A stretch of DNA of 64,000 nt, from positions 6,760,001 to 6,824,000 of the forward strand of contig NC_087250.1 in the NCBI RefSeq assembly GCF_037042905.1, given 5' to 3'. Under the pieces are notes generated by a model. It was not told the origin of the DNA. It searched no databases and saw only the letters and a list, made by a program, of their open reading frames with translations. The stretch's first letter is position 1, and each line of letters begins with the position of its first letter. A program made the translations under genes and the position numbers. This stretch comes from Lytechinus pictus. Taxonomy: Eukaryota. Shown piece by piece: positions 10,248 through 35,979 of this stretch.

Positions 10248-12272
10248 ATGATAATAATTATTACGATAATAGTAATACTAATAATGATCATAATAATAAC
10301 AATAATAAATGAATAAATAAATAATGAGTGTGATGATTGCAGTGCGACAAGAGTTGGAAATGACAGCCTTCTTTACTCATATATTTATAACGAGAACAAT
10401 TTTCAAAGTATAAGACCTTTCCCCCCGCCCCCCACCCCTCCCCTCCCCCAAAAAAAATCTCCCCAAACACATTTGCAGGCAGAAAAATCCTTGACACAAG
10501 AATGCTACTATACCGGCCTGCAAGAGACCCGATCGATAACTCATGAATATTCAATATACAATATACAATAGCGAATGGGCGAGTAGCGTTTGGTGAGGGA
10601 CATCGTACCGCTCTGTCATTGGTCAATTCCGAGCTGAATGCCTACGCACACTCGCCTTTGCTCTGCCCATAGAAGTATGTCCATTGCTACACACAGCCTT
10701 TATATCACACGTGTCTATAGGGAAATCTTGATTCAGATCGCGGCAATATCCGAAATCAACTCTTCAAAATAATGATGCAAAAATACCATTTTACTCATAA
10801 AATGTTTATATGACAAAATCAATTGTGAATTCCTTGCCAATATAACAACATAAAAAACACAAAATATGGTGTTGATTTTCTGGCTGTAAATTTGGTTAAA
10901 AACAAACAAAGTTATTTGGGCAACTATAGCTGCAAATGGCACAAGACGGCTATCATGGGCGACTATAGCTGCAAATGGGTCTTAAAGAGTTAATAAATAT
11001 TATAATAAAATTTTCTTGAATTCTTAATGACTAAATTATCCCTTTTCAGAAAAAAATATCAACAATATCACAGTTTCATATGTTTCATATCGCGCTTAGA
11101 AAGAGGAATACGAAAGTTGTCCTTAGACCTAGAATGTCAAGGTCCTATGTCAAAATAATAATGAAGATATCAGCTCGCGCTTCACACTCGCATCATTTGT
11201 TAAGTGCTTTCCACATCCACTTTACAATTTCCCTACACAATGCTTTAGATAGTGCTCAAATTCACCATTTTCATACCGGAATATCAAGTATTTTCCGCTC
11301 GCGCTTCGCGCTCGCATTATTGATTGTCGTGAAAATAATATCAAAATGCTCAGATTCTGTCTAACTCCAAAACACGCGCACAACATTGAGATACGCAGCT
11401 TCATCTTTATTCAAAACGTGCTTAAATTGTCTAGTTTCAGATCAGATCGCGCTTTGAGCTCGCATAATTAATGTAGGAGGAAATCAAATTACCCATCCTT
11501 TTTCATTATTTAAAAAAGATGATTAGAGTGTCCCATTTTTAGGTCTGAAATCTCAAAAAGAAATTCCGCTTGTGCTTCGCGCTCGCATCAATTGTTTTGG
11601 AATTATACCTATACCGTTAATGATTACAAAAAGTGCTAAGAATTTCATTTTTTTTTTTAGGTCAGAATGTCAAAAGAAATTAAGTTAGCACTTCGTGCTC
11701 GCATTATTTAAAAGTTAAAATATGTATTGTTTTGATGGCTAACTGCAAAACCTCCTTAACACGTCCCTTTTCTATCAAGGCAGAAACCAAATTAAAAATT
11801 TCTGCTCGCGCTTCACGCTCGCAGTAATTATCTACTTTTATACACCTCTCTTTAAAAATGTCGAATAATCCATTCTTCTGATTGGTCAAAAGTTGGGTCA
11901 TGTATTTGACCATGCCTGCAAAACAACAAACTAAGGTGGTTTCCAAGGGCAACGGGCATAGTTCACAAGATTTCTGCCCGTTGCCCCCTGATCCGCCCCT
12001 TAACAACGGGCATGGTTAAAATTTGGTGAAATTCGCATTTGTTTACGTGCAAAAAATTGCTCTGTGCGATGATTGCGGATACCATAATTTCACCGCGATT
12101 TGTGGTCGATAAATTCAGACAGCTCGCGCGTTCGACGCGCATACGCGCTGCGCAGACGATTATTTCGCCGTAAATTATCGATTAAGCGGATCGCTAATTT
12201 GCAGACTAGTACTAGGCCCAGGTCTGTCCCTACGTTTCATCTCTTTTTGTTCTAAAAACGCATTTTTGGTGC

Positions 12273-13610
12273 ATGATGGCAGAAGCTAATCTTCCAAGAT
12301 TTGAACTCCTTGATGATGATCAATTAAAGGATTTAATGGACTCTGCGGACAGTAAGAACACTAAATGTGCAGTTAAGTATGCCTTGAAAATTTTCGAAAA
12401 TTACTTGTTGCAAATCAACTCAGACCTTAGTAACGTAGACAAGCTGTCTAACTCTGAACTGGACCGCGTTATGCAGAAGTTTTATGCTGGTGCTAGACAG
12501 AAGAACGGTTCGCTTTACAGCAAGAAATCGATGTTATCCATCAGATTTGGACTTCAACGTCATTTCCTTAGTTCGAAGAATGTAGACATTATCAAGCACG
12601 ATGATTTTGCCAATTCAGCAAGAGTTTTCAAGTGTTTCTCGGCAACTCTCAAACAGAAGGGCAAGGGATTTGTGAAACACAAGCCAGCCATTTCACCTGA
12701 AGACATGGAGAAGATTCAACGTTCACTTGATTTGGATGATCCACAAGGTCTTCAAGATAAGGTATTTATTGATGTGATGTTGCATTTTTGCAACCGTGGC
12801 AGAGAGAATTTGCAAGAAATGACAGTTGACAGTTTTGAAATTTGCGAAGAAGAAGGAAAGTGTTCCTACATTAGTTTCAAAGATACACTCACTAAAAACA
12901 ATCGTGAAGACAAACTAGAAAAAAGCCAAGGGGGTATCATTGCTCCAACAAATGGATCACGTTGTCCTGTTGCCTCATTCCTTCGCTACAAAAGTAAACT
13001 GAACCCACAATGTAAATGGTTCTGGCAAAGACCAAAACCTAAGCATTATCTTGATCCAGCTTCATTTGGTCCATGGTACTGTAATGCTCCCCTGGGGAAG
13101 AACACCATCGGAGATAAGATGAAAACGATTTCATCTCGTGCTGGAACCAAAGTCTACACCAACCATTGTTTGAGGGCTACCAGTATCAGCACCCTTCAAA
13201 ATGCAGGATTCCGAGATAGGGAGATCATGAGTGTGTCAGGTCATCGATCAGAAGGGAGTCTCAAACACTATGCTAGTACAAGCAGTGATACAAAAGAGAA
13301 CATGAGCCGTGCTATCGCGACAGCTGTTGATCAAAATAAATCAGCACCAGCCGGACCTGGGCCTAGTACTAGATCTACAACAGAAATCCCGGAATCTTGT
13401 CTGACTTCTGGTGCAAAAAGTGAGAGCCAGGAACTCCATGAATTGCAGCAAATACTGGACGACTTCACAAATAACAGAGAAGTCTTTGCACAACCAGCTC
13501 GGCCAACATGCAATATCACAACGAATAGTCATGCTCATCTGTCAAGCCATCAAGTCCAAGCCCCAACCTTCAACATCCAAAACTGTGTTGTAAACATCTA
13601 CAATAAATAA
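12273..13610 (+). CDS. Crypton tyrosine recombinase (DUF3504/KCTD1-KIAA1958-like family), 445 aa, intronless
   Basis: Catalytic set R175 (NRGRE), K208 (TKN), H298-x-x-R301 (NHCLRAT), H324 (SGHRS), Y333; also CPV, FWQRP, WY..PLGKNT and the C-terminal FNIQNCVVNI motif; AATAAA at the stop and at 13741. Confidence 0.93.
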   Translation: MMAEANLPRFELLDDDQLKDLMDSADSKNTKCAVKYALKIFENYLLQINSDLSNVDKLSNSELDRVMQKFYAGARQKNGSLYSKKSMLSIRFGLQRHFLSSKNVDIIKHDDFANSARVFKCFSATLKQKGKGFVKHKPAISPEDMEKIQRSLDLDDPQGLQDKVFIDVMLHFCNRGRENLQEMTVDSFEICEEEGKCSYISFKDTLTKNNREDKLEKSQGGIIAPTNGSRCPVASFLRYKSKLNPQCKWFWQRPKPKHYLDPASFGPWYCNAPLGKNTIGDKMKTISSRAGTKVYTNHCLRATSISTLQNAGFRDREIMSVSGHRSEGSLKHYASTSSDTKENMSRAIATAVDQNKSAPAGPGPSTRSTTEIPESCLTSGAKSESQELHELQQILDDFTNNREVFAQPARPTCNITTNSHAHLSSHQVQAPTFNIQNCVVNIYNK

Positions 13611-13995
13611 CAATCTCTCGCCTTCGGTGTATATATGTTTGAAGTTCAACAAGTTTTCATTGAAAATGTTACTGTTCGCGTGTTTGAAAAGAAAAATGGA
13701 TCTTTGACTTTGTAACTTTGGTGTTAAGGAGTTCTACTTTAATAAAAGACTACATTTTGGATTGAAATTGAGATTTAAAGTTAGTCGCATGGATAAACTT
13801 TTCAAGGTCTACTATTGTTAACCTGTTTTCTTCTAAATATGACCCCCAACGTAAGAGTAATTGAATGCTTTTGAGATGACAGGATCACATGACATTGACA
13901 ATGACAGGTAAGGCATTTCCTTTTTTTTGTATAGATCTAGGCCTATTTCAAATATTATGCTTAAGATAAGTTAAACTTAATTCGGCATATAAAAC

Positions 13996-14159
13996 ATATA
14001 TTGACTGCTTTAATATTCGAGGCATGGTTATTTCCATAGGCTCTCGGGTACCTACAACTTGCTATGACCCCGCGGCGCAAGCGCCTTGGGGTCATAGCAA
14101 GTTGTGAGGTCCCCTCGAGCCTATGGAAATAACCATGCCTCTCATCGCAGTCAATATAT
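13996..14159. repeat. Subterminal long hairpin of the Crypton
   Basis: Nested stems ATATATTGACTGC/GCAGTCAATATAT, GAGGCATGGTTATTTCCATAGGCTC/GAGCCTATGGAAATAACCATGCCTC, ACAACTTGCTATGACCCC/GGGGTCATAGCAAGTTGT. Confidence 0.95.
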
Positions 14160-15279
14160 CTATAATATACGCATCTTGTTCAGGTTCACAAACATTGCCC
14201 AGAAAAGTCAATTTTCAGGTTAAAATAATTATATACATGCAATTCCAAAAATTTTCAGCTCGCGCTTCGCGCTCGCACTATTTAAATAGGGCTTATAAGA
14301 TAATTACACTTTTTATGTTGTTTTATAAGAATAAAGCGTAGAAATGACAGTTAGGACATCGGCGTTTTGCCCCCCCCCCCCCTTATTTTTCATGGCCAAG
14401 AAAAAAAGAGAAAAGGAAAGGGATAAGGGAAAAATATAGGCTTATCATTTTCGAAAAACGTTATGTCAAAATCTACAAAAACTCGTTCGCTCGCAAGTTC
14501 TTATTAATTTTTACGTGATACGCTGTATTTAGCCCCCTCAAAATTTTTGGATCATTTCTCCACTGGGAAAACCCCTTCAAAGAAACAAATTAAAATCAAC
14601 TTTGAGTGGCCGATCTGGGAAAATGTGGGTGAAAAAAAATGTCGGGCCCACCTATTGGCAAGAGCTGGATTCGCCCCTGCCATCTGCAAATCTTTACAAA
14701 CCCAGAATTCGATCATAATTTGTATGTCACCGTAGCATAAGATCATTTGTTTTGGTAATCTTTGTAGTGGCGTAGTATACGGGGGGCCAGGGGGCACTTG
14801 CCCCTCCCTGAGATTTGGTTTGCCCCCCCCCCCTGAAAAAATTGACGGAGCAAAAAAAAAGGGGGGAGAAAGAAAGAAAGAAAAAAAGGGGGAAAGATAG
14901 AAGAAAAAAGAAGAGGAAAATGAGAGGAGGAAGAGGAGTGAATAATATAAGGTGAAGGAAAGACTTTCTTTTTTATGTCACTATACAACAATTTTGCTCA
15001 CGCTTCCCGCTCGCATTGCCTTTTCCATGAGATTAATATCTTGCTCAATATAGGCTGATATGGAGCTTATTAAAGTATACATCCAAAGAAAATTCACGAA
15101 AGTGATGATTATATACAAATTATATATGAATGGAAAGGTCTTGTCTTTTTATACACAAATATGTCACTAAAAAGTCTTATTGATGTCCTGGAAATGCAAG
15201 AAATGAAATTATTAGAGACCCTTCTCAGCCCCCAGCCGCCCCCAGACAGACAGTCACGCGATCAAAAACAGTCGAGAAT

Positions 15280-15577
15280 AATGACGTCACATGATCGACT
15301 CACTCTGTGCAAGCCAGCAGTACACTGATAGCTGATTCACCTTCCTGGTCTCTATTTTTCTTCGAATTTACCGTTTTCTTCATGTATTGTGATATCCGAA
15401 TTCTGTTTTCGACAACTTCAGACTATAAGGGATTCAGAACTGTGTTATTTTGCCCGTTTTTTATTGAATTGTGAACTGGAAAGATCGATTTTGTCCAATC
15501 GACAGTCTTCGTTGTGTTGCTCTACTAACTATAGAAAAACTCCAAGCTGTTTGATTCAGTCAAAAGTCAAGGTAAGC
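15280..15577 (+). promoter_or_regulatory. Putative internal promoter and non-coding first exon of the Kolobok-like element
   Basis: TGACGTCA overlapping CACATG, followed ~290 bp later by a strong donor AAG|GTAAGC (15572). Confidence 0.35.
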
Positions 15578-34145: not shown

Positions 34146-34719
34146 TTATACAAATATACAATGACACTCGAGGATCTGGCTCAAACTATTCGCATCGAAG
34201 GAACATCACATAGTACTATGATCCCGAGGGCCATCGGCCTGAGGGAGAATAGTACTATGTGATGTTCCTGAGTGCGAATAGTTTTAGCCTGTTCCGAGAA
34301 TGGGTCATTGTATATTTGTTTTATATCCCTTCCACTTATATCATTTTACAGCGAAACGATTTTTAATAAGTGGATATAGTCAACAATCGTTGAGAAGTTG
34401 AAAAAATAATAAGTCTTGCCGTATGGATCGTCTGTTCAGCGAGCGCACCTGGTTAGTGCAGCTAGCCGAAAGTTTCCCGTGGCATGCAGTGGAGAGTACC
34501 GTTTGGCTGAGCAGCGCTCTACTCGCATCGCGCCGCACAGCTCGCGAATCGCGACGTAAAAAACGTATAGTTCACTTTTTTCCCTAGGAAAATAATGGAC
34601 TATGCGTGACGTCAGCAAGGAAAATGAACTATTTTATGGCAAACGTTGTTCGTAGTAAAACTATTCTTTTTCTCCTTGTGTACACTCTCAATACAACAAT
34701 CTTAAGTAAGGGATATAAT
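34146..34719 (-). mobile_element. Putative non-autonomous Crypton-like element
   Basis: Terminal 170-bp hairpin (34150-34319) followed by TTTATATCCCTT; far end AAGGGATATAA; mirrors the layout of the 11838-14170 element; no ORF. Confidence 0.6.
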
Positions 34720-35229
34720 ATAAAATATAGCGAAAGTATAGGTGTATATCGAGCACAAGGTAGTGAGACAAGGGGGTCCAGGTGATAGAACTGTCAATAA
34801 TAAGTCAACCTACAATGGTGAAGGGACTTTCCAACCACTTTCCTGAAAATCATCATATTTTATTTTAGCTCTCATGAGGTACCCCATCGGCTTAACACGG
34901 CGCACTTTTGACTTGTCTGCTTATCCTTAGGCGCTATAACTCCACCGATCACAGATATGCCTTCGAAGTGCCTAGTGACACAAAGGAAAACAATTAACAA
35001 TAATTGTATAAATGAAAAAACTTTCTGAATACCTGCCCAGTTTTCATTTTACTAAGAGACAGGAATATGAAAAAGATGACAACTGACCATCTCTAGATCA
35101 ATAAATACGAGAGGGGGGCAGCCCAGCTCCCCCCCCCCCCCCCCCCCCCCCCCCCGCTGAGACTTGGTGTGTATGAATTCGGATTGCCCGAATTCTAGCT
35201 CTAAATCTTAAACACGCACACGCATGTTT

Positions 35230-35979
35230 ATTGAGATAGGCAGCTTGTTCTTTATTCAAAACGTGCTTAAATTATCAAGTTTTCGATCACAATATCAAGC
35301 GCTTTCTGCTCGCGCTTCACGCTCGCATTATTATAAAAATACTCAATTACCCATCCTACTAAAGATTTACAAGATATGAATAGAGTGTCACGTTTTATGG
35401 TCTAAAATCTAAATTTTCATCCAATCGAGCTTCGCGCTCGCATTAATTGTTTAGTTACATATCTATCCATTTCTGTGATTACAAAAAGTGTTTTGAATTA
35501 CCATTTTTGTTTAGGTCAAAATGTCAAGAATTCCAGCTCGTGCTTTGCGCTTGCATTATTTAATTGTTGAAGCACGTATCGCTTTTATGGGTAACTGCAA
35601 AGAGTTCTCAGCAGGTCTATTTTCGATCAGGCCGGAACGTTTATTAAAGATGTCTGCTCGCGCTTGGCGTTCGCGTTAACTATCTAGTTACACACGAATC
35701 TTGGTCAGGATCAAAAACATTAACCGAAATGTTAAATTTTTACGACTAAAAACATGAAAGTTTATACAAGAAATTTAGATCGTGCTTCACGCTCACACTT
35801 TTTATATATGGCTTATGAGATTATTTCATGTTTATGTTGTTTTATAAGAATAAGGCTAAGAAGTGACTGTGAGGACTACCCCTTCAAACAATCAAAAAAT
35901 AACCGGCCGATCGGGGAAAATATGGATGAACAAAATTTCGGACCCCATCCCCTATTGGAAAAAGCTGGTTCCGCCCCTG
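35230..35979. repeat. Uninterrupted copy of the GCTCGCGCTTCGCGCTCGCA repeat (Crypton empty-site paralogue)
   Basis: Collinear with 11390-11837 plus 14166-14679; TATCTAGTTACACACGAATCTTGGTCAGG at 35681-35709 spans the Crypton junction. Confidence 0.85.

Follow-up and report, generated by a model that had tools for sequence, protein, structure and literature searches.

The subject of this analysis is a 64,000-nt stretch of the sea urchin Lytechinus pictus (contig NC_087250.1, positions 6,760,001 to 6,824,000; hereafter the window, whose coordinates are used throughout) and a recombinase-bearing unit within it. The segment from 11838 to about 14168 is very probably one complete, autonomous-type CryptonA DNA transposon of sea urchin. 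Over about 2331 bp, this element is composed of a left end with the motif TTATACACCTC, a promoter-like region, one recombinase gene, a 3' spacer and a 182-bp palindrome, in this order. A Crypton had already been proposed in an earlier reading of the letters without database searches (the sequence-only reading), and the assignment to a Crypton-type element is borne out by the single intronless recombinase gene, the Cre-like fold of its product, the affinity to DUF3504 and QRICH1, and the absence of a reverse transcriptase. We treat the segment as one element, and not as a gene between unrelated repeats, because relatives share the end motifs and the palindrome around the gene. The element is an ordinary member of the CryptonA family already known from sea urchins.

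The tyrosine recombinase gene (12273..13610, + strand, stop codon included) is intronless, open from the first ATG and encodes 445 aa. As the sequence-only reading had stated, the frame is uninterrupted and contains R175, K208, H298, R301, H324 and Y333. These make up the full R-K-H-R-H-Y active site, as expected of a Crypton recombinase (R..H-x-x-R..Y plus K and H/W). K208, H298, R301 and Y333 do not vary in an alignment of 37 homologues, in which R175 and H324 are conserved to at least 90%. A comparison with Pfam places residues 270-336 in Phage_integrase (29.9 bits, cut-off 27.1), while DUF3504 (24.3 bits, E 3.6e-5, cut-off 29.7) and QRICH1 (23.7 bits, E 5.2e-5) stay under their cut-offs; no additional domain is fused to the recombinase. 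A search of the PDB with the sequence gave nothing significant (best E 0.33). The AlphaFold2 model, built on the 37 homologues (pLDDT 76.2), has human QRICH1 as its top fold match (9hjt_H, E 2.7e-7), followed by Cre (1kbu_A, 6.5e-6) and then XerA, XerH, the Tn1549 integrase and the lambda integrase, with both domains covered. Hence the expected relationship to DUF3504 and the phage integrase fold is recovered, by a match over the cut-off in one case, weak matches in the other and a Cre-like fold, and the protein belongs to the CryptonA/DUF3504 lineage of tyrosine recombinases and is Cre-like. CryptonA recombinases match DUF3504, whereas those of DIRS and Ngaro do not (Kojima and Jurka, PMC3212892; published work is cited here from extracts of the respective papers).

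The remaining coding capacity of the region is small. Within 11838-14170, the only other frames of at least 60 aa are short, antisense or terminal and have no Pfam match, and no match to reverse transcriptase (RT) or RNase H was found by Pfam in the 2.33 kb of the element. None of the 103 other open frames of at least 75 aa in the window has a Pfam match at E<=0.001; six of the 103 were scanned against Pfam at E<=0.01. The recombinase frame is thus the only recognisable coding sequence, and only to this extent does the earlier description of all other coding sequence as decayed hold. A second recombinase copy is not detected in the window by tblastn, and no further copies of the 5' terminal region, the open reading frame (ORF) or the palindrome were found in it.

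The protein closes with a short conserved tail (residues 432-445, window 13566-13607) behind a disordered linker of about 70 residues (357-429, pLDDT <50). The consensus of the tail is ..FNFHxCVVNIYN, with C438 and V440 at least 90% conserved, and a beta hairpin is predicted for it. Its hydrophobic core presumably resembles a SUMO-interaction motif. Animal Cryptons are described without a C-terminal domain in the extracts of Kojima and Jurka (PMC3212892).

At E<=0.001, we obtained 322 homologues, many of which carry PF12012 or PF25561. The nearest is a Lytechinus pictus protein of 445 aa with 98% identity; sequences at 70-74% identity follow, and then a Diadema protein. The 70-row protein tree contains several paralogues per genome, and its branching is at odds with the species relationships, which is the pattern that would be expected of a mobile family, unlike that of one orthologous gene. 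Proteins P0009 of Diadema antillarum and P0021 of the brittle star Amphiura filiformis are 86% identical over 270 aa, against just 56% between the Diadema protein and the recombinase of the window; the likeness of P0009 and P0021 suggests horizontal transfer, unless one of the assemblies is contaminated. For the Strongylocentrotus purpuratus homologue P0010 (554 aa, 74% identity), the annotation shows about 240 additional residues at the N-terminus and a C-terminus that is cut short. This gene model may be chimeric, or it may represent a Crypton recombinase fused to a host gene.

The 2.33-kb unit has inserted into a tandem host repeat, copies of which run across the insertion point elsewhere in the window and in read-set contigs. 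Its left flank (11385..11837) is a high-copy repeat of about 120-bp tandem monomers with a GCTCGCGCTTCGCGCTCGCA-like motif, which continues in the right flank (14171..14357). An uninterrupted paralogous copy, equivalent to an empty site, lies at 35230..35876: positions 11385-11837 align to 35230-35689 with 70.8% identity, and positions 14157-14357 align to 35681-35876 with 74%. The spacing of the host monomers (116-148 nt) is regained on removal of about 2.33 kb. The host consensus through the insertion point reads ..AATTATCTAGTTACATACGCATC.., and to the right of the element the repeat resumes with ATACGCATC. Seven sequencing runs, none of them listed as RNA, contain sampled words of the window, each at most 0.10 of them; depths given for the read sets X1 to X4 are contig depths summed over all contigs and not copy numbers. 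Assembled contigs join 11834 directly to 14167 (one in X1, two in X2, two in X3) or 11837 directly to 14165 (two in X3). These joints stem from a high-copy repeat and represent paralogous empty sites, not proof of an empty allele: the summed depth over the left flank ranges from hundreds to tens of thousands in the four read sets.

The host array itself is marked by the CG-rich GCTCGCGCTTCGCGCTCGCA-like motif in each monomer, at 11156-11830, 14241-14290 and also 35263-35810, and every one of the four read sets has it at very high summed depth, with a maximum of about 880,000 in X3. A target duplication of 9-27 bp was considered as a reading of the insertion site and rejected, as its two copies would differ at one third of the positions beside an intact and presumably young gene.

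The ends of the element can be located closely. Its left terminus TTATACACCTC (11838..11848, +) includes TTATAC at 11838-11843, and the direct-repeat partner ATATAC lies at 14165..14170 (+), with the junction between element and host within 14166-14170; the two hexamers are thus present at the two ends, as had been reported. The 5-mer they share, TATAC, occurs just twice in 11800-14200, at 11839-11843 and 14166-14170. No inverted repeat or long direct repeat joining the two termini was found, and the earlier statement that the element lacks terminal inverted repeats (TIRs) stands. The alignment of the host repeat breaks off at 11834-11837, and copies of the element behind other flanks start at 11835-11838 on the left and end at 14164-14167 on the right. 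The conserved end blocks of the relatives are TTAT(T)ACACCTC on the left and ..TTGT/ATAAT.. on the right. Boundaries definable within a few bases, 11838 and 14166-14170, are therefore supported by the sequence comparison.

Readable boundaries had been claimed before, and the empty paralogous sites and the end motifs of the relatives confirm them to within a few bases. For the crossover, two placements fit: the proposed 6-bp core with its TATAC, and the adjoining conserved ATAAT/TTAT. The last 27 nt or so of the element resemble the left flank (TCGCAGT-AAT-TATCTA..TATAC; score 14, reached by 6 of 5000 shuffles), and the left flank of the relatives' locus L036 likewise ends like a palindrome end (..CATTTG). 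The picture of a minimal element without repeats and with a 6-bp core is too simple, given the 182-bp terminal palindrome, the conserved end motifs and the flank likeness of about 27 bp.

The palindrome occupies positions 13987..14168 (+, 182 bp), with its left boundary TATAAAACATATA at 13988-14000 and its right end CTATAATAT at 14160-14168. As DNA, it folds with -71.5 kcal/mol (z -13.9), and none of 200 shuffles is as stable. A comparison of 10500-15500 with Rfam returned two sub-threshold miRNA-like matches, one of them on the palindrome (26.3 bits, threshold 69).

For the comparison of the ends with those of distant relatives, metagenome contigs were scanned with a protein alignment, which yielded 107 confirmed relatives; 80 loci, with a protein identity of at most 53%, were kept. 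Ahead of their genes, L003, L004 and L036 carry the left-end motif in the form TTATTACACCTC or TTATACACCTC; the three flanks before it are unrelated, and the contig of L004 starts at the motif. At 35-45 nt past it, T.ATTGGT is invariant in four of four sequences (window, L036, L003, L004); it corresponds to the CCAAT-like box TGATTGGT at 11879-11886 of the window. The relatives that share this start and the box have just 37-52% protein identity. The left boundary of the palindrome, TATAAAACAnATA, is invariant in all five sequences compared (window, L001, L003, L004, L005). Of the loci, 42 extend for 900 nt or more past the catalytic region, and 18 of these have a palindrome of at least 80 nt within 1500 nt downstream; at 16 of the 18 it starts 225-861 nt after residue ~340 (694 nt in the window). 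At the end of the 18 palindromes compared, TGT is followed by ATAAT in nine and by ATACT in two; the window has TCT followed by ATAAT. On the sense strand, the end motif TTGTATA[AC]T occurs 14 times at 13 loci in the 59 kb lying 200-1500 nt after the catalytic region, compared with one occurrence in the other 183 kb of this strand and six in 242 kb of the other strand. L063 and L070, two copies with 91% identity, diverge immediately past GTATAATATT. Directly before the palindrome, L001, L003, L004 and L007 carry an inverted copy of the left end of 24-46 nt, of which about 10 nt are present in the window.

The arms of the palindrome covary. When 11 homologous palindromes are aligned, 94.2% of the cells pair, against 76.1% in shuffled sequences and 31-43% in slid controls; 40 of 57 pairs are altered on both sides, and none of 500 shuffles reaches the value for pairing or for compensatory change. 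The covariation could reflect use as a cruciform or hairpin, a long dyad of binding sites, or homogenisation of the arms. Among mismatches, G.T and A.C (28 versus 19, p 0.24) show no strand bias, and strand-specific use of the hairpin, which was considered, finds no support in these counts. BLAST of the non-coding parts of the window against the 80 loci gave three weak matches, two of the palindrome (E 0.002 and 0.006) and one of the 3' spacer (E 0.012), in a test that is weak alone, as shuffled palindromes gave five matches in 50 tries at E<=0.05. An exact-match scan of the metagenome contigs with a 23-nt stretch of the 5' terminal region returned no matches. In L020, L022, L026 and L051, which belong to one metagenome family, the palindrome region lies between two direct copies of a sequence of about 170 nt (e.g. 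L020, 1630-1800 and 2517-2689), which suggests tandem or partly duplicated copies.

Summed depth steps down from both ends of the element towards the gene: it is 552 (X1), 320 (X4), 15 (X2) and 6714 (X3) over 11870-11983, and 138, 104, 0 and 1109 in the same sets over 14036-14149, compared with about 0-3 (X1, X4, X2) and 0-52 (X3) over the ORF. The left and right parts are found in contigs with flanks unlike those of the window, and copies of the left part break off at 12013, about 12056 and 12087. The abundant copies of the ends are consistent with non-autonomous derivatives. Far more abundant non-autonomous Crypton copies, with both ends in common, are described from medaka and Rhodnius in the extracts of PMC3212892.

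Some observations weigh against the reading as one complete, autonomous-type element. Among the 15 joints listed of 416, neither a joint of the two end regions (about 12013 to about 13960) nor the circle junction (about 14168 to about 11838) is present; the only joint among those listed that goes back, 14285 to 11795 (X3), connects host-repeat monomers and not the ends of the element. Only one full-length copy was seen in the window and the read-set contigs, and contig depth does not equal copy number. The copies of the right end in other flanks stop at 14164-14167, before the full ATATAC, and thus do not establish that the core is conserved at either end alike. The right end of the window copy reads ATCT/ATAAT where the relatives have TTGT/ATAAT, and this could be a disabling change. 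The left end of the element and the right flank are not alike (4741 of 5000 shuffles reach their score). Furthermore, palindromes are only modestly enriched downstream of the genes (18 of 42 loci, versus 17 in 85.7 kb of upstream sequence), and some of the loci in which the end motifs were tested had also served to derive them; independent evidence from the relatives comes from the contrast in position and strand and from the covariation.

That the frame belongs to a domesticated host gene of the KIAA1958, ZMYM or QRICH1 type, no longer mobile and merely situated in a repeat-rich region, is most improbable. Such a gene would suit homologue names like 'KIAA1958 homolog' or 'ZMYM-like', the best fold match to human QRICH1, the low depth of the ORF in the four read sets and a protein conserved at 56-74% in other echinoids. 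However, all six catalytic residues are kept and conserved, whereas many domesticated DUF3504 proteins are without them according to the extracts of PMC3212892 and PMC13465315, and no extra domain is fused. Moreover, the unit around the gene has defined ends and splits a repeat that is continuous in its other copies, and the non-coding end motifs of the unit are conserved with relatives. Because the insertion in a repeat and the retained catalytic residues coincide with a patchy tree of several paralogues per genome in conflict with the species relationships, a domesticated single-copy gene is unlikely. Another alternative is a composite, in which a Crypton core (from about 12014 or 12088 to 13959) lies in or beside two unrelated repeats, the one at 11838-12013 and a foldback miniature inverted-repeat transposable element at 13987-14168; the outer boundaries would then not be those of the Crypton. 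We consider this very unlikely, corollary included. The depths of the two end regions, which exceed that of the ORF by factors of tens to hundreds and differ 3- to 6-fold from each other, the many left-end copies that break at exactly 12013, and the gene-less palindrome of the same type at 34147-34326 would fit a composite. Yet the start of the left region and the CCAAT-like box recur upstream of the relatives' genes at 37-52% protein identity, and downstream of these genes, at a matching distance, stand palindromes that share the boundary motifs. At least three different break points occur among the left-end copies, as expected of deletion derivatives, and the host repeat is interrupted just once.

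A third possibility leaves the identity of the element untouched: the window may hold a genuine CryptonA copy that is immobile, intact only through recency, and whose cis sites have drifted from the family consensus. We regard this as a possibility of some substance, albeit on the unlikely side. In its favour speak the right end, ATCT/ATAAT instead of the TTGT/ATAAT of nine of the 18 palindromes compared, the inverted left-end repeat before the palindrome, 24-46 nt in L001, L003, L004 and L007 but cut to about 10 nt here, and the lack of a second copy in the window. Against it stand the intact frame and active site, the 98% identity to the Lytechinus pictus protein, the well-kept palindrome and two X2 contigs that match the ORF with one change in 141 nt and none in 152 nt. 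The frame, the full active site, the 98% match and the X2 contigs would allow an active element.

For the autonomous CryptonA element preferred here, the following mechanism may be proposed. The recombinase would excise the element as a circle in which the palindrome end is joined to the left end, and the circle would insert at genomic sites that resemble this junction. Strand exchange would take place within a short AT-rich core, TATAC in the copy of the window, and the conserved palindrome would be the assembly site of the recombinase, whether it acts as a dyad of binding sites or is extruded as a cruciform. The circle and its insertion at junction-like sites are proposed by analogy with other tyrosine recombinases and from the model put forward for Cryptons; the resemblance of the right end of the element to its left flank supports such insertion.

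A more far-reaching reading, which we hold as doubtful, supposes an animal CryptonA lineage with a fixed cis architecture in which the palindrome is the recombination site itself, used as a cruciform or hairpin like attC and the CTX-phage sites. The architecture would comprise TTAT(T)ACACCTC on the left and, on the right, a palindrome of 130-190 bp with complementary arms, closed by ..TTGT/ATAAT... Where a member has the left end repeated in inverted orientation over 24-46 nt next to the palindrome, a single giant dyad would result in its excised circle; both of these points share the same low expectation. In integron attC and CTX-phage attP(+), too, a long imperfect palindrome beside the crossover is kept by compensatory changes, a likeness to the palindrome of the window. 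These sites act as single-stranded hairpins of one strand, whereas the palindromes of the window family show no strand bias in their mismatches. We know of no single-stranded stage for Cryptons.

Several further features lie within the element. Its 5' terminal region (11838..12087, +) is promoter-like and common to the far more abundant copies elsewhere; it contains a hairpin at 11947-11986 with perfect 12-bp stems (GGGCAACGGGCA and TGCCCGTTGCCC), part of which is repeated at 12004-12017. An internal inverted repeat has its upstream arm at 12199..12224 (+), 49 nt before the ATG, and its downstream arm at 13354..13380 (+), in codons of the disordered linker. The arms match perfectly over 19 nt (12206-12224 and 13354-13372) and at 92.6% over 27 nt; none of 300 shuffles exceeds 14 nt, and the repeat was not seen in the 26 relatives scanned. 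The 3' untranslated spacer (13611..13986, +) is accompanied by AATAAA at 13602-13607 and 13741-13746, and contigs of organism C extend from the ORF into it.

Elsewhere in the window, a second, gene-less palindrome of about 180 bp lies at 34147-34326 on the - strand and has the same boundary motifs, TATAAAACAAATA on the left and ..TATTTGTATAATGT on the right. About 410 nt upstream of it, at 34739-34748, the left-end motif is present with one mismatch (TATACACCTA) and in the right orientation; on its own, this match is at chance level (about 3.8 expected by our estimate, three found). Together, the palindrome and the motif may delimit a non-autonomous derivative, about 600 bp long, that belongs to another Crypton family.

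The deuterostome CryptonA elements (Crypton-1_SP and CryptonA-2_SP of Strongylocentrotus purpuratus, CryptonA-1_OL of medaka and CryptonA-2_SK) are, in the extracts of PMC3212892, like the window copy in their single DUF3504-related gene, size and want of TIRs, and in occurring as few autonomous and many non-autonomous copies with both ends. CryptonA-2_SP measures 2263 bp, with eight copies and terminal repeats entered as 'n.d.', and CryptonA-2_SK of the acorn worm measures 2289 bp; animal Cryptons are there given as 2.0-2.3 kb, and no terminal repeats were found in them. Compared with these elements by description, not by Repbase sequence, the window copy, taken with its relatives, adds the TATAC direct repeat seen in the window, the conserved left-end motif and a conserved, covarying terminal palindrome of 130-190 bp. 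For the fungal and oomycete CryptonF and CryptonS, a circle has been proposed, with direct repeats of 4-6 bp (TATGG, TAACTA) as the substrate of the crossover (Goodwin et al. 2003, as cited in PMC3212892). Their recombinases are of another lineage, CryptonF has a C-terminal GCR1_C, and no terminal palindrome is reported for them in the extracts of PMC3212892. A description of a Crypton terminal palindrome was not found in the literature searched, which includes extracts of PMC3627910 and PMC12130899 and does not extend to Repbase reports; within the same literature, and with Repbase entries outside the comparison, the combination of shared end motifs and covarying palindrome was not found described either.

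Other tyrosine recombinase systems share the enzyme but differ in their sites or their context. Cre/loxP and Xer/dif have the same two-domain fold and catalytic residues, and strands are expected to be exchanged in a short spacer between the arms that the enzyme binds; the sequence identity is 13-15%, and the site in the window is an asymmetric junction beside a long palindrome, not a 34-bp dyad. DIRS and Ngaro retrotransposons, from which Cryptons are set apart by having no RT, RNase H or methyltransferase, carry RT and RNase H together with inverted terminal repeats and an internal complementary region, or with split direct repeats, whereas the element has no match to RT or RNase H in its 2.33 kb. 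KIAA1958, ZMYM2/3/4, QRICH1 and KCTD1 isoform b possess the homologous DUF3504/QRICH1 fold. According to the extracts of PMC13465315, they are host genes fused to other domains, and many are without the catalytic residues; in contrast, the protein of the window stands alone and keeps its active site in full.

Among the classes of eukaryotic DNA transposons, Cryptons are understood least. To our knowledge, no transposition reaction has been shown and no recombination site defined for animal Cryptons. The copy in the window pairs an intact enzyme with ends mapped to a few bases. A paper of 2025 (PMC12130899, from extracts) considers Cryptons hard to classify for want of conserved structural features; the left-end motif together with the covarying palindrome could provide an annotation signature for CryptonA and its gene-less derivatives, and could likewise be the substrate of a recombination assay. 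As the vertebrate ZMYM, QRICH1 and KIAA1958 domains descend from this enzyme lineage, the DNA that it once recognised is of interest. If the palindrome should indeed be the recombination site, a defined pair of substrate and enzyme would be at hand for the first biochemical reconstitution of a eukaryotic Crypton.

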